14,304 bases of DNA from a virus (lineage: Duplodnaviria; Heunggongvirae; Uroviricota; Caudoviricetes): IMG/VR virus record IMGVR_UViG_3300032291_002057, positions 1-14,304 of that record, one strand, 5' to 3'. The translations under genes were made by a program, and so were the position numbers. Each line of letters begins with the position of its first letter. The first letter of the stretch is position 1. The notes below the pieces were generated by a model that saw nothing but the letters and a program-made list of their open reading frames with translations, was not told the origin of the DNA and did no database searches. Of the stretch, positions 1 to 13,291 are shown piece after piece.

Positions 1-1
1 C

Positions 2-688
2 GATTTTAGATTGTTCTTTAGTAACATTCCAGGTACAGGTCGTTACAGTGAATATGGTCCTATGGATCCAAAAACTGTACAAATTATATTTGGTGATGCA
101 GGGAATCAAATTGTTGCTGGACATGAAGATGCAATCACTATTGTGTTTGTTGGCAACAAAGGTGATAGCAAAGTAATGATGACGCCGTGGATTATGGCAC
201 ATAGATTTGGACATGCTATCCAAGCCGGGTATCGCAATTTTAGTAATAGGGCAGGTGCATGGACAGAAGCAGAAAAACATTTTTTCAGCACAATCAATAA
301 TACACTTGAAGAATACTATGGCAAGGCAAACAGAGGAACTAACACATCTAATACTTCGGTAAAATGGGACTTAACTCCTGAATATAATGCACTATTCAAT
401 GCTATTGGCACTCAGCGTAGTAGTCGCAGTAATGAAATCAAACGTCCATATGAATTCTTATATGAAATTTTTGCACAGTATCTAGGTACCGGCAATGTAA
501 CATTCAACCCACTACCAAGCAACTTAGGATATGGTCGTAAAGTATGGGGTAATCCTACTAAGTATATGAACATCAAACCTCAAATGCGTGACGATGCTGC
601 CGATGCCGCACAAACTTTAGCCAATGATATGCAGTATATGTTTAATGATGTGCTGTCTAGCTCAGTTGGACAAATTTTTGTGATGTAA
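2..688 (+). CDS. Hypothetical phage protein, 5'-truncated by the window edge; zincin-like motif variant HRFGH
   Basis: Frame is open from position 2 (DFRLFFSN...) to TAA at 686-688, so the TTG at 11 is probably not the true start. WIMAHRFGHAI and YEFLYEIFAQY resemble HExxH and ExxxE.F..Y zincin motifs, with the catalytic E replaced by R. Confidence 0.6.
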   Translation, partial: DFRLFFSNIPGTGRYSEYGPMDPKTVQIIFGDAGNQIVAGHEDAITIVFVGNKGDSKVMMTPWIMAHRFGHAIQAGYRNFSNRAGAWTEAEKHFFSTINNTLEEYYGKANRGTNTSNTSVKWDLTPEYNALFNAIGTQRSSRSNEIKRPYEFLYEIFAQYLGTGNVTFNPLPSNLGYGRKVWGNPTKYMNIKPQMRDDAADAAQTLANDMQYMFNDVLSSSVGQIFVM

Positions 689-1515: not shown

Positions 1516-1591
1516 TAATCCTAATGAATACCCAGTCTATCCCGAAGATGACGGATATGATAGACCTAAAAACCCGTATAGTCCGGTTTAA
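1481..1591 (+). CDS. Small ORF, 36 aa (MLKELSAAEPSNNPNEYPVYPEDDGYDRPKNPYSPV), not in the ORF track
   Basis: ATG at 1481 with GGAG at 1468-1471 (9-nt spacing) and TAA at 1589-1591. It exactly fills the gap between the nuclease and the convergent methyltransferase. Confidence 0.5.
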   Translation: MLKELSAAEPSNNPNEYPVYPEDDGYDRPKNPYSPV

Positions 1592-2316
1592 AGTTTTGTG
1601 TAAACAAAATACAATCTATTATTTGCGTCTTTCTTAAACGTATCAAGTTTAAGATTATACTTCTCGGCAAACTCATTTACGATTTCAAAACTCCAGGGAA
1701 ATATGTCAACATATGGTCCTGTTTTATGAGTGATGCCTGGATTAGCACGTAAATAGAATTTACCACCCTTCTTTAACAAGTTAACGCAATGTGCAAATCT
1801 TGCTTCAATTTCATCTTTGCTATTAAAATTGATTGAACCTAACGCCAGAATTACATCATGTGATTCTGGTTTTACTTTGTATTCTAGTATATCAACTTCA
1901 TAATCAGCTTGATTATTGTACGGATCTATTCCAATTAAATTCTGAATACGACCTTTGAATGGATGATAACCACATCCAACATCAAGTACTTTTTCTGGAT
2001 TTAACTTATTAACCTCATCGGCAAGTTCCCATCCAGTATGTTCATAGTCACCTGTGCGTGGTTTCCAAATTTCACTGAAAAATCTAAGAATATATCGTTC
2101 ACTTAAATCATCTACTATATTACGTAAAGTCCCTACATAATCACATGGTAAACTTAATTCTAATTCTACTGCATCTTTGAACTTGCGATAACGTGCAGGA
2201 GTCCAAGGTAAGTCTTGCACAATAGTGTTTTCATCAATAGAAATTTTAGAGTACTTGGGTAAATTAAACGCAAGTTGTAAATTTTCTTTGACTACCTTAA
2301 AAATTTTTGTATTCAT
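1588..2316 (-). CDS. Class I SAM-dependent methyltransferase with a small N-terminal helical (ACP-like) domain
   Basis: Motif I VLDVGCG, acidic motif II IGIDPY, DVILALGSINF and LLKKGGKFY(L)R are Rossmann MTase hallmarks. Confidence 0.85.
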   Translation of the reverse strand: MNTKIFKVVKENLQLAFNLPKYSKISIDENTIVQDLPWTPARYRKFKDAVELELSLPCDYVGTLRNIVDDLSERYILRFFSEIWKPRTGDYEHTGWELADEVNKLNPEKVLDVGCGYHPFKGRIQNLIGIDPYNNQADYEVDILEYKVKPESHDVILALGSINFNSKDEIEARFAHCVNLLKKGGKFYLRANPGITHKTGPYVDIFPWSFEIVNEFAEKYNLKLDTFKKDANNRLYFVYTKL

Positions 2317-2357
2317 GTAATTTTTTCTAGATTTTATGAAATTTTATTCAAAATGGA

Positions 2358-2382
2358 ATAAATATTCTGTCATCATATTTAT
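2358..2382. promoter_or_regulatory. Face-to-face pair of T4-like late-promoter boxes (ATAAATA on each strand)
   Basis: ATAAATAT at 2358-2365 and ATATTTAT at 2375-2382 form a perfect 8-bp inverted repeat with a 9-nt spacer between divergent genes. The core resembles the T4 late promoter TATAAATA. Confidence 0.6.
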
Positions 2383-2395
2383 ATTAGGAGAAACG

Positions 2396-3352
2396 ATGAA
2401 GAAACTTTTATGCATACTAGCACTTATTCCTGCACTATCATTTGCATGGCAACCAACAAAACCTATCACTGTTATATTCCCAAATGGTCCGGGGGCGGGC
2501 AATGAGATATCATTCTTTTTTGTTGCTGATATTGTAGAAAAGAAAACAGGTGTTACCTTTACAAGAGAACATAGACCTGGCGCAGACGGTAATATCGCAA
2601 TGAATCATTTTGCTACAGTTCCTAATGATGGACATACTATTGCAGTTCCTGCTTGTAATAGTCAATGGATTACTGCTGATGTATGGTACTCACAGATGTT
2701 AAAATACAATGTATATGATTTTGAACCAGTAGCAAACATAGCACGTAGTCCATTAGCATTTTGGGCACATCCCGAAAGTAAAGTCAACACTCCTGAAGAT
2801 TTGATTAGAGAAATACGTGAAAAGAAACGTCCTATTAATTTTGCTATCGGTGGAGGTGGACATAAATTAGCAGTAGAATATTTAACTACAAAACTAAATG
2901 TACCCGGTGGTGATAGAGTTCAGACAATTATGTACAAAGGTCCTGCACAAGCATTGATGGACACAATGGGAGGTCATACTGAGTTTTCTGTTACACCAGT
3001 GGGAGTAGGATATCCCCACGTTAAAGCAGGCAAGTTAAAATTGATTGGATTAGCAAGCGAAGTACCACTAAAAGGTTTAGAGTCTGCTCCATTAATGAGT
3101 AAGTATGCCCCAGGATTAAATTTATATGGTTGCTGGAACTTAGTACTACCTAAAGGAACATCCGCTGAGATACAAAAATGGTACCATGATAATTTTGTAC
3201 CTGCTATTCGTAGTAAAGAAGCAAAAGAAAAATTTGACGAGAACTTAATGTTCATAACTACTAAAGAACATTCTCCAGAAGGTGTCCGTGCTAGTATGGT
3301 ACTATTAAGTAGAGATTGGATTAACATAGCAAAGAAGATTAAACCTGAATGA
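2396..3352 (+). CDS. tctC: Tripartite tricarboxylate transporter substrate-binding protein (TctC/Bug family)
   Basis: Start reassigned to ATG 2396 (AGGAG at 2386-2390). Signal peptide MKKLLCILALIPALSFA|W; WQPTKPITVIFPNGPGAGNE, HRPGADGNIA, DGHTI, MYKGPAQAL, GKLKLIGL and W-LVLPKGT match the Bug/TctC pattern. Confidence 0.85.
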   Translation: MKKLLCILALIPALSFAWQPTKPITVIFPNGPGAGNEISFFFVADIVEKKTGVTFTREHRPGADGNIAMNHFATVPNDGHTIAVPACNSQWITADVWYSQMLKYNVYDFEPVANIARSPLAFWAHPESKVNTPEDLIREIREKKRPINFAIGGGGHKLAVEYLTTKLNVPGGDRVQTIMYKGPAQALMDTMGGHTEFSVTPVGVGYPHVKAGKLKLIGLASEVPLKGLESAPLMSKYAPGLNLYGCWNLVLPKGTSAEIQKWYHDNFVPAIRSKEAKEKFDENLMFITTKEHSPEGVRASMVLLSRDWINIAKKIKPE

Positions 3353-3969
3353 AATATATTTTTGTAGCCGGAGCTCCGGGTAGTAAGTGGAGCAGTGTAG
3401 TAAAGAACATTTATTATAGTCCCAATATTGATCGTAGTGATTACAGTGACAATAGAACATATTACCATGATGCTAGTGGTGAAATGGATTTGATGCATTT
3501 AGGTGCATACTTTGACCCTGGTATGGAGTTTGGAAAATACTTTCACAGATTGTCTATGTACGATCATTATGAATGCGAAACAGATTTTGATGCGCCGTTT
3601 TCAGGGGAAGGAGTTCGTATTATAAAAAGTCATGTATTTGCTAATCATATTGACTATATTAAGCAAACATGGCCTGATTGTCCTATCATTTTAGTACATC
3701 GACCTGATGATGCCTGTTTAGGTTGGTGGGTTAAATGTGGTCATTTTAATATAACATACCCTGATTACTCTGAATACTATCAGAACTTAAAAGTTATGTC
3801 TGAAAAGATTAAAGAACAAAATCAGGGCATTATTAAAGCAATGTATAAGTATTCGGGACGCACTCCAATAACTAATCAGGTGCTGTGTAACATGCTAAAT
3901 ATAGAATTGCCACCTAGTGAGTATTACCAAGACTACGGTGCATCAGATATAAGGGTAACAGTAATATGA
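3349..3969 (+). CDS. Sulfotransferase-like P-loop-fold protein
   Basis: N-terminal IFVAGAPGSKWSSV (divergent 5'-PSB loop), IIKSH and IILVHRP (3'-PB-like). ATGA overlap with the upstream gene. Confidence 0.55.
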   Translation: MKYIFVAGAPGSKWSSVVKNIYYSPNIDRSDYSDNRTYYHDASGEMDLMHLGAYFDPGMEFGKYFHRLSMYDHYECETDFDAPFSGEGVRIIKSHVFANHIDYIKQTWPDCPIILVHRPDDACLGWWVKCGHFNITYPDYSEYYQNLKVMSEKIKEQNQGIIKAMYKYSGRTPITNQVLCNMLNIELPPSEYYQDYGASDIRVTVI

Positions 3970-4655
3970 TAAGCAGTTGGGATGAGACAAAAACAAAAAG
4001 TAAATATCACTTTAATGTTGATAAAATTGACCCTAATTATGATACAGTAGTTAAGATGGGAAAATTTACATATGACTTTAGTGAAGAAGTTGCAAAGATT
4101 GTTAAAAATGCAAAGCCTGCAACATGGGCAACTAGAGGATATAAAGGTAAAGGAGTTGAAATTCCCAATGACGATTTAAAAGCAGAAGAATATGATTTAG
4201 TTAGATCAGGTGTTAATCCTAACATGGTCATTACACATCTTAACTGGGACTTGCCACCGATGTTACAACAGATAAGTGATTTGTTTGGATTAAAAGATTG
4301 CATGAATCGTGTACATGTACAGATGCCCGGAGAAGTATGGAATCTTCATTTAGATAAACTACATAAATGGAATCCAGATAATCCTTATACAGTTAAAAGA
4401 ATAATGGTACATTTAACTGATTGGCAACCGGGACACTTTTGGAGTTATGGAAACTATACACACCAGGGCTGGAAAGCAGGTGAAATAACTACATTTGATT
4501 GGCACAATGTACCTCATAGTACAGCAAATGCTGGACACACTCCCAGAGTTACATTTCAAATGACCGGAGTAGTGACAGAAAAATATAATGATTTTACTGC
4601 TAGACTAAAAAGATTCGGAACTCATGTATTAAAATATGATGATTCTGTAATTTAA
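3966..4655 (+). CDS. 2OG-Fe(II) dioxygenase, Asp/Asn beta-hydroxylase-like cupin
   Basis: HxD (WNLHLD) ... distal H (VPHSTANAG) ... R (TPRVTFQMTG); WKAGEITTFD strand pattern. ATGA overlap. Confidence 0.75.
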   Translation: MISSWDETKTKSKYHFNVDKIDPNYDTVVKMGKFTYDFSEEVAKIVKNAKPATWATRGYKGKGVEIPNDDLKAEEYDLVRSGVNPNMVITHLNWDLPPMLQQISDLFGLKDCMNRVHVQMPGEVWNLHLDKLHKWNPDNPYTVKRIMVHLTDWQPGHFWSYGNYTHQGWKAGEITTFDWHNVPHSTANAGHTPRVTFQMTGVVTEKYNDFTARLKRFGTHVLKYDDSVI

Positions 4656-4658
4656 TAT

Positions 4659-4749
4659 CACCTTAGGACCGCAATTCGTTGCGTAGGTGGGCCGGCTGCT
4701 GGCCTGACGTACCAATTCGCTACTGGGAAATCTAAAGTGAGCATTTTTT
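4659..4749 (+). ncRNA. Candidate structured non-coding RNA of unassigned family
   Basis: Intergenic, about 56% GC (47 of 84 nt, hand count) in an AT-rich window. CGCAA-TTCG-TTGCG hairpin, CACCT/AGGTG helix, GGCCGG-CTG-CTGGCC hairpin, possible pseudoknot TTCGCT/AGTGAG, and a terminal T6 run. Confidence 0.6.
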
Positions 4750-4750
4750 G

Positions 4751-4757
4751 ATAAATA
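4751..4757 (+). promoter_or_regulatory. T4-like late-promoter box ATAAATA
   Basis: ATAAATA is followed by SD AAAGGA (4764-4769) and ATG 4778. Confidence 0.55.
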
Positions 4758-4777: not shown

Positions 4778-5011
4778 ATGCAACAACATATCTATACATC
4801 ATCAAAAGGCGAGAATTTTCTTTCATGGCACGAATGGGCCTTAACAACGTTAAATGAAGAAGATTTAGCAGTTTATATTGAACCTATCCCTGAAGGTGAA
4901 ATAATGTCAGAAGGCAAATTAGCACTATACAGTCGTTGGGTACAAGAAGAAAAAATTATCTCCCATAATGTTATGGAAGACGGTGTTTTGGTAATGGAAC
5001 ATGATATCTAA
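4778..5011 (+). CDS. Hypothetical protein, 77 aa, acidic
   Basis: ORF with SD AAAGGA; overlaps the next start by 11 nt. No recognised motif. Confidence 0.7.
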   Translation: MQQHIYTSSKGENFLSWHEWALTTLNEEDLAVYIEPIPEGEIMSEGKLALYSRWVQEEKIISHNVMEDGVLVMEHDI

Positions 5012-5605: not shown

Positions 5606-6214
5606 ATGATTCATCTACTTTTTCCGTTACCAAAAGAGTTAATTGTCGCATTTAGCGGCGGTGTGGATAGTACCGCTATCGTAGATTTTTTAAGTAACAA
5701 ACACAAAGTAACATGTGCCTTCTTTCATCACGGCACTGAAAATAGCGAACGTGCATTTGAATTTGTTGCAAGGTTTTGCACTGAACGTGAATTACCTCTA
5801 ATAGTAGGCTTTATTAAAAACAGTAAATCAAAAGAATTAAGTACCGAAGAACATTGGCGTAATGAACGCTATGAATTTTTAAATAGCTTTGGTGATGGTC
5901 TAGGTCCTATTGTAACAGGACATCATTTAGATGATTGTGTTGAAACATATATCTGGTCAGCATTGCACGGTAAACCCAAAGTAATCCCTTGCGCTAGAAA
6001 TAATGTTATCCGACCATTTTTAACTACAACTAAACATGAATTTGTTAATTGGTGTGAGCGTAAAAATATTGAATGGTGCCATGATAACAGCAACGATGAC
6101 GACCATTACACTAGAAATTATGTTCGAAAACATTTAGTGCCACATGCATTACATGTTAACCCAGGGTTACGTACAACGGTTAAAAAGATTGTTGAACGTC
6201 AGCAAAATGTTTGA
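5606..6214 (+). CDS. tilS: tRNA(Ile)-lysidine synthetase, catalytic domain only (202 aa)
   Basis: PP-loop AFSGGVDS, HHG, RNERY, TGHHLDDCVET, IRPFL and DNSNDDDHYTRNYVR are TilS signature motifs. The C-terminal TilS domains are absent. Confidence 0.9.
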   Translation: MIHLLFPLPKELIVAFSGGVDSTAIVDFLSNKHKVTCAFFHHGTENSERAFEFVARFCTERELPLIVGFIKNSKSKELSTEEHWRNERYEFLNSFGDGLGPIVTGHHLDDCVETYIWSALHGKPKVIPCARNNVIRPFLTTTKHEFVNWCERKNIEWCHDNSNDDDHYTRNYVRKHLVPHALHVNPGLRTTVKKIVERQQNV

Positions 6215-6528: not shown

Positions 6529-9242
6529 GTTATGTAGATGCTATTCATAGCAGGGATGAGGATCGCATCTTTGTAGTTGAACGTGACAAAAATGGGTTGC
6601 GTCAATACAAAGAATATCCTGCTAATTACGTTTTATATTATCCTGACGTAAAGGGTAAGTATCGTAGTATCTATGGCAATCCTGTCAGTCGTTTTAGTAC
6701 TCGCAAACGTGCTGAGTTTGAAAAAGAAAAACGTATACAATCAGGTAAAAATCTGTTTGAGAGCGATATCAATCCTGTCTTCCGATGCCTGAGTGAAAAC
6801 TATTTAGGTGTTGATGCACCTAAACTACACACTTGTTTCTTTGACATTGAAGTAGACTTTGATCCAGAAAAAGGTTTCAGTCCTACTAGTGATCCATTCA
6901 ATCCAGTAACTGCAATCAGTATGTATTTGGATTGGCAAGATACACTAGTAACATTGTGTATTGCGCCAAAGCACATGACCACAGATACAGCATGGGAAAT
7001 CACTAAAGAGTTTGAGAACTGTTTGCTTTTCAATAACGAAAAGGAAATGTTTGATACATTCTTTGAATTGATTGAAGATGCTGATGTATTAACTGGTTGG
7101 AACTCAGAAGGATATGATATACCATATATGGTTAATCGTGTCACCCGTGTAATGAGTAAAGACGATACACGCAAATTCTGTTTAATGGGTCAACTACCCA
7201 AGCCAAGAGAATATGAACGATTTGGTAAGTCAGAACAGACTTATGATTTGGTTGGTCGTATTCACATGGACTATCTTCAACTCTATAAGAAGTACAATTA
7301 TGAAAGTCGCCATAGCTATAAACTAGATGCTATTGGTGAGTTGGAGGTTGGTGAGAACAAAACACAATATGAAGGTACTCTTGACCAATTGTATAACAAG
7401 GACTTTAAGAGGTTCATTGAATACAATCGACAAGATACCATGTTGTTGGTAAAGATTCACAACAAATTAAAATTCTTAGAGTTAGCTAATCAACTAGCAC
7501 ATGAAAACACAGTACTGCTTCCAACAGTAATGGGTTCAGTGGCTATGATTGAAATGGCTATATTTAATGAAGCCCACGAACGTGGTTTAGTTGTCCCTGA
7601 TAAAAAACGAAGGAAAGAAAATGCAGAAGATGTCCAACAAGCGGCAGGTGCCTATGTTGCTACGCCCAAAAGAGGTATGCACGAATACGTCGGAGCAGTT
7701 GATATCAACTCGCTCTACCCCTCGGTTATTAGAGCCCTTAATATGGCGGGAGAAACAATCGTCGGGCAAGTCAGACAAACAATAACTGACCAGTATATGG
7801 CTGATAAAGGTCAAAGACTTGCATCAGAAAAGAAACGTCACAAAGAGGGTGATGATGCAGTTACTGGTAGTATTCTATGGGAAAATTTGTTTGGTGCATT
7901 AGAGTACACTGCAATTATGAATCAAGAACGTGGCACTATGCTTACAATTGATTATGAAGATGGTCGTAGTGAAGAACTGAGTGCGGCAGAAATATGGAAA
8001 CTGGTCTTTGATAGTCATAAGCCTTGGATGCTTAGTGCAAATGGTACAATCTTTACGTATGAAAAAGAAGGTGTTGTTCCTGGATTACTATCTCGCTGGT
8101 ATAGTGACCGTAAAGAAATGCAGAAAAAACTAAAAGAAGCAACGACCCAAACTGATAGAGAGTATTGGGATAAGCGACAACTGGTACGCAAGATTTTGCT
8201 TAACTCTGCATACGGCGCACTATTGAATGAGCATTGCAGGTTCTATGATAAACGTATTGGTCAATCAGTAACATTGAGTGGTCGGCAGATTGTTCGTCAT
8301 ATGATGAGCCAAATCAATGAATGTGTTACTGGTGAATATAATCACGAAGGTAGCGCAATTGTTTATGGTGATACTGACAGTTGTTATTTTAGTGCATATC
8401 CTGTTCTCTATTCGCAAATACAGAATGGTGAATTACAATGGGATAAAGACTTGTGCATCTCATTGTATGATAACATTGCTGACCAAACGAATGATAGTTT
8501 TCCTGGATTCATGGAAAAAGCATTTCACTCACCTCGAAAGAATGGCGAGATTATTAAAGCTGGTCGTGAACTGATCGGTGATCGTAGTATCTTTATTACA
8601 AAGAAACGTTATGCTATCAATATCTTTGATAAAGAAGGCAAGCGTAAAGACAGTGAAGGTAAAGCAGGAGATATTAAGGCTATGGGTCTTGATTTGAAAC
8701 GTGCAGATACTCCTAAACAAGTACAAGAGTTCTTAATGTCTATTCTTAGTATGGTAATTCAAGAAGGTAAAGGTCGTGATGAAGTCATTGACAAAGTGAA
8801 AGAATTCAAACGTGTGTTATCTCAACAAGACAGTTGGACTAAGGGTTCTCCTAAAGGTGTTAATAAGTTAACAAGCTATGGAGAACTTGAAGCTAACAGT
8901 AAAACAGGTCGTGCTAACATGCCCGGTCACGTTCGTGCGGCACTTAACTATAATTATTTGCGTAAAGTTCACGGAGATAACTACAGTCAAAAAATTGTTG
9001 ATGGAATGAAAATTGTAGTATGCAAACTCAAGCCCAATCCATTAGGATTTACAAGTGTTGCATATCCAGTAGATGAATTACGTTTACCGCAATGGTTCTG
9101 TGACTTGCCATTTGACGATGATGCTATGGAGCAAACACTTGTTGATGAAAAGATTGACAACTTGCTTGGAGTATTAGATTGGGACATTCGCAGTAACACA
9201 GATGTAAAATCAACATTTGATGAATTGTTTACATTCGGTTAA
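6525..9242 (+). CDS. gp43: Family B DNA polymerase, T4 gp43-like, uninterrupted
   Basis: ExoI FFDIEVD, ExoII WNSEGYDIPY, ExoIII YNRQDT, motif A VDINSLYPS, motif B KILLNSAYG, motif C YGDTDS, and C-terminal clamp-binding-like STFDELFTFG. TTG start overlaps the upstream TGA. Confidence 0.97.
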   Translation: MSYVDAIHSRDEDRIFVVERDKNGLRQYKEYPANYVLYYPDVKGKYRSIYGNPVSRFSTRKRAEFEKEKRIQSGKNLFESDINPVFRCLSENYLGVDAPKLHTCFFDIEVDFDPEKGFSPTSDPFNPVTAISMYLDWQDTLVTLCIAPKHMTTDTAWEITKEFENCLLFNNEKEMFDTFFELIEDADVLTGWNSEGYDIPYMVNRVTRVMSKDDTRKFCLMGQLPKPREYERFGKSEQTYDLVGRIHMDYLQLYKKYNYESRHSYKLDAIGELEVGENKTQYEGTLDQLYNKDFKRFIEYNRQDTMLLVKIHNKLKFLELANQLAHENTVLLPTVMGSVAMIEMAIFNEAHERGLVVPDKKRRKENAEDVQQAAGAYVATPKRGMHEYVGAVDINSLYPSVIRALNMAGETIVGQVRQTITDQYMADKGQRLASEKKRHKEGDDAVTGSILWENLFGALEYTAIMNQERGTMLTIDYEDGRSEELSAAEIWKLVFDSHKPWMLSANGTIFTYEKEGVVPGLLSRWYSDRKEMQKKLKEATTQTDREYWDKRQLVRKILLNSAYGALLNEHCRFYDKRIGQSVTLSGRQIVRHMMSQINECVTGEYNHEGSAIVYGDTDSCYFSAYPVLYSQIQNGELQWDKDLCISLYDNIADQTNDSFPGFMEKAFHSPRKNGEIIKAGRELIGDRSIFITKKRYAINIFDKEGKRKDSEGKAGDIKAMGLDLKRADTPKQVQEFLMSILSMVIQEGKGRDEVIDKVKEFKRVLSQQDSWTKGSPKGVNKLTSYGELEANSKTGRANMPGHVRAALNYNYLRKVHGDNYSQKIVDGMKIVVCKLKPNPLGFTSVAYPVDELRLPQWFCDLPFDDDAMEQTLVDEKIDNLLGVLDWDIRSNTDVKSTFDELFTFG

Positions 9243-10055: not shown

Positions 10056-10444
10056 TTAACAACATAACACCAATCGGCAAATACATACAGGTTTCTGGCA
10101 GCGGTTCTACCTACGTGTCTAGGAGTTATAACTCAAATGCCAAGATGGTCGGTGACATGATGTATGATGTTGATGCTCAATGTATCAAAGTGTTTGATGG
10201 CAATAGTTGGACAATATTGGCAAGTCCCTCAGTTTCTGTTGGGTTAAATCACGAAGCAGAAAGTTTATTAGATTGGGCAAGAAAGAAGCGTAACGAAGAA
10301 TTAGAATATGAACAACTTGCCGAAACTAATCCTGCCATCAAAGATTTGTTAAGTCAAATCAAAACAAAAGAAGAACAAATACAAATGGTAATGACTTTAC
10401 TTAAAAGTCCAGGAAATGAGCCAGTAGAATTAATGGGAAGTTAA
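10052..10444 (+). CDS. Hypothetical protein, 130 aa, C-terminal coiled coil
   Basis: ATGA overlap upstream and TAATG overlap downstream. No recognised catalytic motif. Confidence 0.75.
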   Translation: MINNITPIGKYIQVSGSGSTYVSRSYNSNAKMVGDMMYDVDAQCIKVFDGNSWTILASPSVSVGLNHEAESLLDWARKKRNEELEYEQLAETNPAIKDLLSQIKTKEEQIQMVMTLLKSPGNEPVELMGS

Positions 10445-12000
10445 TGGAACAAGATAACTTATCACAAAAACAAAATCCAGACTGGGCATTGTTTTTACCC
10501 GCAGTTAGTAGTTTTTATATTGCTGGTTTAGGCAAACAACGTAAGGGTGAAGACTACTTTGATAAAGCAAGAATCCCTGCAGGCTTTAATGGTGATGTAG
10601 AGAAACTAAACTTTCTTAATAGCAAAGAAGGTCTTTACTATTATAAATGGGGTCTATATTCAGCAGGTCATGCAAACTTGGATACAACAGTTGATGACCA
10701 TAATGAAAGCATCATACGTGAACGTGAACAAGGTACGTTTATGTTAGGTGATAGTGGTGGTTTTCAGATATTAAAGGCTCAATGGCCTGCTGACTGGAAA
10801 GATCCTAATTGCCCACGTGCTATGAAAAAGCGTAAACAAGTATTGACATGGATGGATACATACATGGACTATGGTATGTGTTTAGATATCCCAAGTCAGT
10901 CATTGACTACGTTTCATATTCAAGACCCAAAGACTAAAACATCTGCTCACGGTATCAGTACTATTGAAGAAGCTATCACAGCAACACATATCAACAATGA
11001 GTACTTTATTAAGAATCGCAATGGTAAATGCAAGTTTTTGAATGTACTTCAAGGTCGCAATCATACTCAATCACAAGATTGGTATAATGAAATGAAGAAG
11101 TATTGTGACCCTAATGTATATCCAGACAATCATTTTAATGGTTGGGCGTTTGGTGGACAAAATAAGATTGATGTTCATTTGATGTTAACACGTATGATTG
11201 ATATCATATATGATGGATTGTTACAAGAAGGTAAACATGATTTGATTCATTGCTTGGGTACAAGTATTTTAGAATATGCAGTATTGTTTACTGATATTCA
11301 AAAAGCTATTCGTAAGTATCATAATCCTAAACTACAAATTACATTTGACTGTGCAAGTCCTTTCTTTAGTGCGGCTAAAGGTTTAGCATATTTCAATACT
11401 AGTATTGAGCATAATAAAAAGTGGTCATACAGTATGGAAAAGACTGCGGAGAAAAAGTCTTATGCAAATGACACACGTAAGTTCAGTACTGCTGTTCTTG
11501 CTGAGGGTGTTCATAAACTGTTCACTGATAGTCCGGTAACTGATAAATTAATTCTTAAAGACCTGTGCTATCGTGGTGTAGGTTTCATTGGTCAACACGG
11601 TAAAGAAACAAAAACAAGCTGGGATACATTGAGTTATACACTAATTCAGTCACACAATGTTTGGATGCATATGAATGCAGTCCAAGAAGCAAACCGTAGA
11701 TATGAACAAGGAATAGTTCCTAAAATGTTAATGAATGAAACATTTGAAAGTGTTTTATTTAAAGACATTATAGATGAAGTATTCAGTAAAAAAACTAAAC
11801 AAGAAGCCATTGATTTAATAGATAGTCATTCAAGACTATGGATGCAATTTCAATCAGGTAGTCAAGGTATTAGTGGTAAAAAAACTGTTAATGCTATGAC
11901 AATGTTTGACCAGTTATTTGAACAGGAAGAAAATGATTCAGAAGTTGAAGAAATTATTGAAGATAGTGATGATGAAATGGCGCAAATTTTGGAGGCGTAA
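10444..12000 (+). CDS. tRNA-guanine transglycosylase-fold protein, probably a DpdA-like DNA guanine transglycosylase
   Basis: TGT barrel motifs in order: MLGDSGGFQ (10750-10767 for DSGGFQ), MCLDIPS, LNVLQG, GWAFGG, IHCLG, ITFDCASP and SHNVW. The CxCxxC zinc motif is absent. Acidic C-terminal tail. Confidence 0.8.
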   Translation: MEQDNLSQKQNPDWALFLPAVSSFYIAGLGKQRKGEDYFDKARIPAGFNGDVEKLNFLNSKEGLYYYKWGLYSAGHANLDTTVDDHNESIIREREQGTFMLGDSGGFQILKAQWPADWKDPNCPRAMKKRKQVLTWMDTYMDYGMCLDIPSQSLTTFHIQDPKTKTSAHGISTIEEAITATHINNEYFIKNRNGKCKFLNVLQGRNHTQSQDWYNEMKKYCDPNVYPDNHFNGWAFGGQNKIDVHLMLTRMIDIIYDGLLQEGKHDLIHCLGTSILEYAVLFTDIQKAIRKYHNPKLQITFDCASPFFSAAKGLAYFNTSIEHNKKWSYSMEKTAEKKSYANDTRKFSTAVLAEGVHKLFTDSPVTDKLILKDLCYRGVGFIGQHGKETKTSWDTLSYTLIQSHNVWMHMNAVQEANRRYEQGIVPKMLMNETFESVLFKDIIDEVFSKKTKQEAIDLIDSHSRLWMQFQSGSQGISGKKTVNAMTMFDQLFEQEENDSEVEEIIEDSDDEMAQILEA

Positions 12001-12001
12001 A

Positions 12002-12211
12002 ATGTACGAAAATCAAATTGATAAATTACAACAACAATTTAATAATCTTGATACACAAATAAGTGTTACTAAACAAAATCCTAACTATGATTCTCTTGTA
12101 CTACAAAACATGGAGAGCCAGAGGCACCTGATTTATTATGAAATTCAACGATTAAAACGTAAACAGTGGGAAGAAGATAACGAACGAGTTGAGTTCGATG
12201 ATGACCGTTAA
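12002..12211 (+). CDS. Small coiled-coil hypothetical protein, 69 aa (DUF465/YdcH-like pattern, weak)
   Basis: Start reassigned to ATG 12002 with GGAGG at 11991-11995; LDTQI...EIQRL heptad pattern. Confidence 0.65.
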   Translation: MYENQIDKLQQQFNNLDTQISVTKQNPNYDSLVLQNMESQRHLIYYEIQRLKRKQWEEDNERVEFDDDR

Positions 12212-12212
12212 T

Positions 12213-12767
12213 ATGATACCAAACTTAGAAAAACCAATAATTAATTTTGATCCAAAAAGAAAAATATTCATTAAAGAGAATGTTTTGGATCCTGATATGT
12301 GTGACAGTATTATTGAGTTTGGAAAAACTAATGTAATCAAAGGAGTGAACAAATATACACACTTATTTGACATAAGTTTTCATTCTTGTATATTACCATT
12401 AAATCACGAATCACATGTTAAATTATCAGATACGTGGAATGAAATTAGTGAACATTTGAATATGCCGATTGATTTTGTAGAACCTTATGAATTAAAAAGG
12501 TATACTCCTACTGATTTTTTCGGGAAGCATACAGACAATTATTTTTGTCACAAAGATGGCATTGATAGGAAAATTACATTGAGTATACAACTTACTGATG
12601 AAACAGACTTCACTGGTGGAGATTTCTTAATCCTTAATCAACCTGGTCCAAAAGCAAAAGGTAGTATTGTAGCATTTCCCAGTTTCTTCCCACATGAAGT
12701 GAAACCAATTGATACTGGTGTTAGATGGTCATTAATAAGCTGGGCTTGGGGAAAAGATTTTACTTAA
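12213..12767 (+). CDS. 2OG-Fe(II) oxygenase, prolyl-4-hydroxylase/PKHD-type
   Basis: Start likely ATG 12213. KRY...KHTD (HxD), RKITLSIQL, DFTGGDF, GSIVAFPSFFPHEVKPI (distal H), GVRWSLISW (2OG-binding R). Confidence 0.85.
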   Translation: MIPNLEKPIINFDPKRKIFIKENVLDPDMCDSIIEFGKTNVIKGVNKYTHLFDISFHSCILPLNHESHVKLSDTWNEISEHLNMPIDFVEPYELKRYTPTDFFGKHTDNYFCHKDGIDRKITLSIQLTDETDFTGGDFLILNQPGPKAKGSIVAFPSFFPHEVKPIDTGVRWSLISWAWGKDFT

Positions 12768-12781
12768 ACTAACCAATAACA

Positions 12782-12810
12782 TTGTATTACTAACAAAACA
12801 ATGTTATACT
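12782..12810 (+). promoter_or_regulatory. sigma70-type promoter of the QueD-like / sugar-enzyme operon (TTGTAT-17-TATACT, extended -10)
   Basis: TTGTAT 12782-12787, TG 12802-12803, TATACT 12805-12810. Confidence 0.75.
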
Positions 12811-12838
12811 AATTTTATATTAACTAACTGTAATAACT

Positions 12839-13291
12839 ATGGAACAAAACATTCAAGCAATGACTGAAAAACGTGTACGCATTAAACATCACGCCAAACG
12901 TATGATTTTCGTAACATTTCAAAAAGAGGGTATTCATTTATACCCAGCGGCAGCAACAGATCCAGCACTCGCAACGGGTGATGAATATGATGTTAGCTTT
13001 TTAGGAACTCCACATCGTCACATCTTTCACTTTAATGTGGCGATTGAAGTATTTCACAACGACAGGGATATTGAATTCATTCAATTTAAACGCTGGTTAG
13101 AGAATCTCTATAAAGGCGGAACACTTGAATTGAATTACAAGAGTTGTGAAATGATTAGTGATGACCTCTACGAAGTTATTGCTACTAGATATCCCGAGCG
13201 TGACATTGAGATTACTGTCTCCGAAGACGGTGAGAACGGTGCTACGATTTATTACAACACAACAAAACCTTTCAACAACCTCGCTATTTAA
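12839..13291 (+). CDS. QueD/PTPS-like tunnelling-fold protein lacking the catalytic Cys
   Basis: Aligns by eye with QueD: FQKEGIHLYP ~ FTFEAAHRLP, PHRHIF ~ LHGHSF, IEFIQFK ~ IDFAELK, SCEMI ~ TSEVL, TVSEDGENGATIY ~ MVKETCTAGCIY. Start could be the ATG at 12860. Confidence 0.7.
   Translation: MEQNIQAMTEKRVRIKHHAKRMIFVTFQKEGIHLYPAAATDPALATGDEYDVSFLGTPHRHIFHFNVAIEVFHNDRDIEFIQFKRWLENLYKGGTLELNYKSCEMISDDLYEVIATRYPERDIEITVSEDGENGATIYYNTTKPFNNLAI

Follow-up and report, generated by a model that had tools for sequence, protein, structure and literature searches.

Positions 4659-4742 of the virus DNA analysed here hold a structured RNA of a family that is widespread in jumbo phages, and two conserved segments of it complement adjoining stretches of 23S rRNA at helix 69-70. 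This complementarity, the main feature of the element, is missing from the initial annotation of the same DNA. We propose, with a probability of roughly 0.6, that the element is an RNA domain at the 3' end of an mRNA, behind the stop codon, that would base-pair with helix 69-70 of the host 23S rRNA on free 50S subunits. Physical pairing with 23S, when a guide-type variant is included, appears at least as probable on the sequence evidence; a specific capture-and-hold effect on the 50S is doubtful.

Genomic setting and parts of the element

The window, meaning the whole 14,304-nucleotide stretch that was analysed, forms the first part of a virus record of 114 kb. This contig has 16 tRNAs and a DNA polymerase closest to those of jumbo myoviruses such as Phosso, Atu_ph07 and RaK2 (43-49% identity). 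The RNA element is placed between an ORF ending at 4655 and an ORF starting at 4778, with DUF7653 and polymerase genes ~1.5 kb downstream. It occurs once in the 114-kb contig, and two related genomes have two clear copies each. Its parts and immediate flanks are as follows:

3966-4655, plus strand: upstream ORF of 229 amino acids, with no Pfam or PHROG match, ending in a stop codon 3 nt ahead of P1
4659-4742, plus strand: whole structured RNA (84 nt; long form, loop class I), from the family alignment and covariation, with the strand from G-U versus A-C counts
4659-4689, plus strand: P1 (4659-63 with 4685-89), closing the loop that bears segment A and P2; its register varies in homologs and it is outside the covariation count
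4660-4671, plus strand: segment A, ACCUUAGGACCG, which matches E. coli 23S 1920-1931 as a perfect reverse complement; its target is the 3' side of helix 69 plus the turn at 1925-1929
4670-4683, plus strand: P2, an optional hairpin, missing in many homologs
4690-4704, plus strand: P3 hairpin with a 4-bp stem and the 7-nt loop GGCUGCU (4694-4700); 99% paired, three pairs changed on both sides
4705-4733, plus strand: P4, closing the P5 arm; 79% paired, double changes at all 3 scored pairs
4712-4726, plus strand: P5 hairpin, whose loop is segment B (4716-4723, UUCGCUAC), exact complement of 23S 1930-1937
4736-4742, plus strand: 3' tail AGUGAGC, in a predicted pseudoknot with the P3 loop (covarying pair C4696-G4741)
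4750-4757, plus strand: GATAAATA, resembling a T4-like late promoter, outside the RNA; a putative promoter

The helices of the initial annotation are all where it placed them (CACCT 4659-63 with AGGTG 4685-89, CGCAA-TTCG-TTGCG 4670-83, GGCCGG-CTG-CTGGCC 4690-4704 and CCA-loop-TGG 4712-26), as are AGTGAG (4736-41), GCTGCT (4695-4700) and T6 (4744-49). Its third hairpin, drawn with a longer stem, is conserved in the 4-bp form given above. P4 is weak in the window copy (G4706-C4732, A4707-U4731).

Several other features of the window were observed. A divergent methyltransferase-like gene and a coupled cassette of TctC, sulfotransferase-like and unassigned 229-aa genes occupy 1588-4655 and are unlinked to the RNA in most homologs. 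A gene for a PP-loop (TilS-like) ATPase lies at 5606-6214, and one of the two tRNA-Met(CAT) genes of the contig could be its substrate. At 10444-13291, after a clamp-like gene, ORFs of 518 and 150 aa resemble by eye tRNA-guanine transglycosylase and a QueD-like protein, with no family match naming them, which suggests possible 7-deazaguanine modification. A weak preQ1-like Rfam match (E 4.7) at 7576-7617, inside the DNA polymerase ORF, is probably due to chance.

A conserved pseudoknotted fold

Taken by themselves, the composition and folding energy of the window copy are ordinary. The GC content, announced as about 56% for the island at 4659-4749, is 56% over 4659-4742 and 52% over that full span, against 36% in the genome; since ~30 other 90-nt windows of the contig have a GC of at least 53%, GC alone is unremarkable. 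This copy folds with no greater stability than shuffled sequences (z -0.32), and its computed minimum-energy fold differs from the conserved one (-26.4 versus -16.3, pseudoknot left out). The evidence for a real RNA comes from comparison.

Homologs were collected by a three-anchor pattern search of viral contigs, with at least 120 contigs per search and hundreds of homologs in all. Among 89 distinct sequences, 95% of the cells of P3, P4, P5 and the pseudoknot are paired and 9 of 14 pairs change on both sides, with a covariation score of 0.52; shuffling gives 0.15 and slid controls no more than 0.11. On the plus strand, G-U pairs are commoner than A-C pairs (32 versus 2 in P5, 10 versus 0 in P3), which identifies it as the folding strand.

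The 3' tail had previously been assigned to the P5 loop, as an H-type pseudoknot between UUCGCU and AGUGAG. With the P3 loop left free in the search, the tail AGUGACC accompanies the loop GGGUGCU in 27 of 27 cases, the tail being AGUGAGC in all 156 others, and distant members swap P3 loop and tail together in several ways (L288, L315, L552, L577, L579, L662 and L664). These compensatory and joint changes place the predicted pseudoknot between the P3 loop (4694-4700) and the tail (4736-4742). Pairing of the P5 loop (4715-23) with the tail has zero double changes, is broken at one pair in 12 of the 89 sequences and fails in the compensatory variants. The proposed switch, with two loops competing for the tail, is likewise unsupported, given that the P3 loop covaries with the tail and the P5 loop does not.

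An Rfam scan, also suggested in the initial annotation, gave zero matches over 4659-4749 even with E up to 10; the Rfam 15 families, which include SAM/SAH, preQ1, hammerhead, HDV, twister and pistol, matched neither this segment nor the short-form elements described below. The earlier dismissal of SAM/SAH and hammerhead likenesses stands, the CUGA and GAAA hammerhead words of the window copy falling in variable alignment columns, and nothing points specifically to the ribozyme or riboswitch that had been entertained. A riboswitch in a 5' leader was rejected because the downstream genes vary and promoter-like motifs often follow the element. Likenesses to SRP, ykkC, HDV/theta, twister and pistol RNAs were dropped, their cores being absent.

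Position behind the upstream gene

A same-strand stop codon lies -4 to 20 nt from segment A in 142 of 177 homologs, and in 28 the UAG within segment A is itself the stop codon of the upstream ORF. The corresponding figure for random positions is 3.7%; these were not matched for being intergenic, so all that the proximity demonstrates is a lack of space for a promoter of the element's own. On the other side, TAAATA occurs at most 45 nt downstream in 70 of 177 homologs and a TTGAC-like word in 65. With a stop codon just upstream and promoter-like words downstream, the element is best read as the putative 3' end of the upstream mRNA and not as the leader of the next gene. In the window, GATAAATA probably serves the downstream ORF at 4778-5011. 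In three contigs (L016, L057, L091) the sequence directly upstream of the element includes a word similar to the complement of 16S around 1492; it is probably the coding end of the upstream gene.

These observations agree with the earlier description of an unassigned, pseudoknotted phage ncRNA at an operon 3' end: a pseudoknot covaries, Rfam has no match and the element sits behind a stop codon. They sever its link to the tailoring operon, as the genes upstream and downstream vary widely and freely among homologs. Both the U6 and the late-promoter-like word are present; the U-run is unconserved (U5 in 25 of 177) and no plus-strand terminator is predicted, and we rejected an intrinsic terminator for the long form on the same grounds. 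Short-form relatives do qualify as intrinsic terminators.

An element located directly after a stop codon and ending in a 3' pseudoknot could be a mere 3'-end stabiliser or processing signal, that is, an exonuclease-blocking pseudoknot between late and replication operons, and in relatives loop B is indeed a terminator loop. Such a signal would be expected at many operon ends rather than in one or two copies per genome, and it would have no need of invariant loops complementary to rRNA, so that we hold this explanation to be very unlikely.

Complementarity to 23S helix 69-70

Compared with E. coli rRNA, 4660-4671 is the exact reverse complement of 23S 1920-1931 and 4716-4723 that of 1930-1937. 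The two segments overlap and jointly span 18 contiguous bases, 1920-1937, with their order swapped; in the Rfam consensus these bases make up part of the 3' side of helix 69 and of the multiloop next to it, a target that belongs to intersubunit bridge B2a. Both complements occurred within 30 nt with a frequency of 1.7e-5 in composition-preserving shuffles, which rises to roughly 2e-4 when ~12 possible word pairs are allowed for.

Segment A is constant while the stems, P2, the neighbours and the pseudoknot sequence vary. In 48 homologs searched without requiring it, it is intact or one substitution off in every case; of its 12 changes, 4 are A-to-G and each of these gives a G-U pair with the rRNA, and a U-to-C change mismatching A1928 is present in 7 of the 48. 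For the segment B loop, 23S 1930-1937 is the best site in either rRNA. The complementarity can be longer, as a CUACC extension to 23S 1933 is seen in 28 of 178 class I and 36 of 95 class II elements, and the 3' arm of P2 often reads GUURY, loosely complementary to 23S 1910-1914 (130 of 183 homologs, and 144 of 183 with a P2-sized insert).

Cofolding of naked RNA fragments, with pseudoknots left out and the unfolding cost paid, ranks the helix 69-70 window 1-4 among 174 rRNA windows for 11 of 11 plus strands (-13 to -22 kcal/mol), and 10 or worse for minus strands. We also weighed a product of the minus strand that mimics helix 69-70 and acts as a decoy for ribosome-directed toxins or factors. 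The rRNA words are in sense on that strand, which folds comparably, but the G-U pairs of the plus strand far exceed its A-C pairs, forms lacking P2 retain only one strand of helix 69, and terminators and flanking genes lie on plus; a decoy of this kind is therefore extremely improbable.

A guide RNA acting at the same site would direct an enzyme, either of the phage (nuclease, methyltransferase) or of the host (an RNase), to modify or cleave 23S around 1929-1931, or would trigger rRNA decay that releases nucleotides. The two complementary arms meet and overlap at 1930-1931, like those of bipartite guides, and the contig has a nuclease and a methyltransferase-like gene nearby. Yet no protein gene travels with the element, the arm order is opposite to that of H/ACA pockets and of the intron guide discussed below, and an 18-bp split duplex is short for RNase III, which makes a guide quite unlikely.

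Most sampled bacteria share one and the same target core. Actinobacteria and Patescibacteria have variants of the stem; elements matching these variants of helix 69 were sought and only chance matches were found. With the target nearly invariant elsewhere and no element found for the variant hosts, no covariation between the RNA and its target emerged.

Nucleotides of the P3 loop are complementary to 16S 519-527 and also, if two G-U pairs are counted, to 23S 1902-1910 on the other strand of helix 69. For 13 P3 loop variants, which are related to one another, the 23S 1897-1916 window falls in the top 5% in 10 cases and the 16S window in 8. This is at most suggestive of a third pairing site through the P3 loop, itself occupied by the tail. 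A requirement for the 11-nt match between the P3 loop and the 530 loop of 16S was rejected, since PA5oct and several lineages have exchanged loop and tail jointly. The 7-nt matches to 23S 1070-76 and 1099-1105 were discounted as probably due to chance.

Relatives and carriers

A class II subclass, found in at least 120 contigs (L546-L664, L298:680-784, L305:5734-5829), keeps segment A, P3 and the tail and has GAGUCGUGCCC as its P5 loop. This loop resembles segment B, from which it differs by one deletion and two substitutions; it matches rRNA weakly (-9.4 at 1923-1942 and -9.5 at 1964-1969), outside the best sites. Its UCGUGC is complementary, over 6 bp only, to 23S 1964-1969, which belongs to the multiloop that also contains 1930-1937.

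A terminator-type short form is carried by other phages, again in at least 120 contigs (L423-L534, for example L442:5988-6049, and L332 with two copies 0.8 kb apart). It consists of segment A, a hairpin and then a terminator whose loop is segment B. At positions that the search did not constrain, 57-76% of 94 short-form sequences complement the helix 69 loop (1916-1919).

These relatives bear on a self-contained tertiary fold, namely an aptamer, ribozyme or protein-binding RNA in which A kisses B and the rRNA match reflects a captured rRNA- or intron-derived origin instead of a present function. By sequence inspection, A and B are partly self-complementary and able to pair together in both loop classes, no convincing rRNA complement is seen for the class II loop, and the ~30 invariant nucleotides of the family alignment are typical of aptamers and ribozymes. 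What a self-contained fold leaves unexplained is the unforced helix 69 loop extension of the terminator class and the CUACC extension to 1933; moreover, there is no common downstream gene, the downstream genes often have promoter-like motifs of their own, and Rfam offers no match. We consider it unlikely.

The full long form is present in cultured phages, in PA5oct (MK797984:115465-115562, plus strand) and Paride (E 2.2e-5), and is 99-100% identical across 11 Pseudomonas phage records. The PA5oct copy comes directly after the EST35_0189 stop codon and precedes an intrinsic terminator; it is absent from the four ncRNAs reported by RNA-seq for that phage (PMC7318152). In KVP40 and ~50 Vibrio phage records, segment A sits in a hairpin loop within a tRNA cluster, followed by a GUCGUG hairpin and a U-run (L711:1445-1525, minus strand, about 178220-178300 in KVP40; z -3.56), a probable relative.

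Two divergent copies were also observed. The second copy in one genome (G004, L543:342-418) has lost half of segment A with P3, B and the tail intact, possibly as a specialised or decaying paralogue. A complete 364-kb genome (L289:7205-7310) has a variant of segment A and P2, and then a different 3' domain.

Other searches were negative. BLAST of the element against cultured phages gave zero matches, as did model and pattern searches of Phosso, Atu_ph07, Vibrio 2.275.O, XaC1 and RaK2; one complete relative had no clear match, and the segment-A word was not found in T4, PTm1 or HTVC008M. A match in PAU looked incidental. A loose pattern search of genome contigs returned at least 120 chance matches, zero of them with segment A, and neither the 401 genomes searched from the class of a Zwartia MAG nor the 401 from the Hymenobacter phylum contained a match to targeted patterns.

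Proposed mechanism

Returning to pairing with helix 69-70 on the 50S, the P3-tail pseudoknot and P4 would form a rigid frame with a protected 3' end. Loop B would serve as the toehold on 23S 1930-1937, after which segment A would invade the 3' strand of helix 69 (1920-1929), displacing P1 and P2. The subunit interface is buried in the 70S ribosome. Both sites lie on this interface, which makes a free or immature 50S, and not the 70S, the expected partner. The position behind the stop codon suggests that a terminating ribosome may unwind P1 and free a 50S beside the RNA. In the least certain step, the RNA would capture the 50S subunits released at termination and hold them unjoined, keeping or protecting them for phage translation.

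More generally, the element may be an RNA-only factor of ribosome control, a pseudoknotted jumbo-phage RNA whose base pairing, possibly with three adjoining sites (1902-1910, 1920-1931 and 1930-1937), opens helix 69 of the host 50S and thereby lets it capture, store or redirect large subunits. We put this forward tentatively, as a prospect just short of even.

Comparison with known systems and significance

To our knowledge, the ribosome control described for phages relies on proteins, tRNAs and RNAs acting at the mRNA level. Like loop-presenting antisense RNAs, the element displays a conserved target complement in loops. CopA/CopT of plasmid R1 and RNA I/RNA II of ColE1 do so with YUNR-type words (here UUCG and UUAG), and their route of kissing followed by strand invasion is a likely one for the phage RNA too. 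Unlike them, the phage RNA would target host rRNA and not a cis-encoded plasmid RNA, its complement is split and swapped in order, its frame is pseudoknotted and there is no overlapping antisense gene. With box H/ACA and C/D guide RNAs and the rRNA chaperones U3 and U8 it shares bipartite pairing with conserved rRNA, but it has no boxes and no bacterial partner proteins, its arm order is reversed and it is encoded by a phage.

A group I intron (RF00028) at 23S position 1931 of an Acidobacteriaceae MAG (L687:1545-1883, no long insertion) grips the same site with the same two 23S complements (UCGCU and CCUUAG) in its guide sequence. There the complements are joined and in the opposite order, whereas the phage RNA lacks the P3-P7 catalytic core and a fixed G opposite U1931. 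A group I intron or trans-splicing ribozyme was rejected for the element itself, with no RF00028 match and mostly A opposite U1931 (G in ~16%). Helix 69 binds aminoglycosides, and a synthetic PNA directed against it inhibits E. coli growth (PMC7038079), a base-pairing attack on helix 69 in cells to which the phage RNA would be the natural counterpart. The intron guide and the PNA together indicate that the helix 69-70 site is reachable by base pairing. The protein phiKZ014 (bioRxiv 10.1101/2023.02.26.530069) is likewise a jumbo-phage factor aimed at the host 50S; it binds 5S rRNA, whereas the phage RNA would base-pair with 23S.

In the literature searched, which stopped short of subscription papers and of the supplement of PMC10690425 (a screen of 10,000 candidate phage RNAs), we found no report of a phage RNA pairing with rRNA. 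The element is an RNA family of an undescribed kind, present neither in Rfam nor in that literature, and its rRNA-pairing function is probable. As the full form is carried by cultured Pseudomonas phages (PA5oct, Paride and relatives), the proposal is directly testable. If true, it would reveal an antisense RNA that occurs in nature and targets an intersubunit bridge of the ribosome itself. Helix 69 forms a central subunit bridge, and a natural RNA ligand for it would show a new route of host takeover and provide a probe of 50S assembly and recycling.
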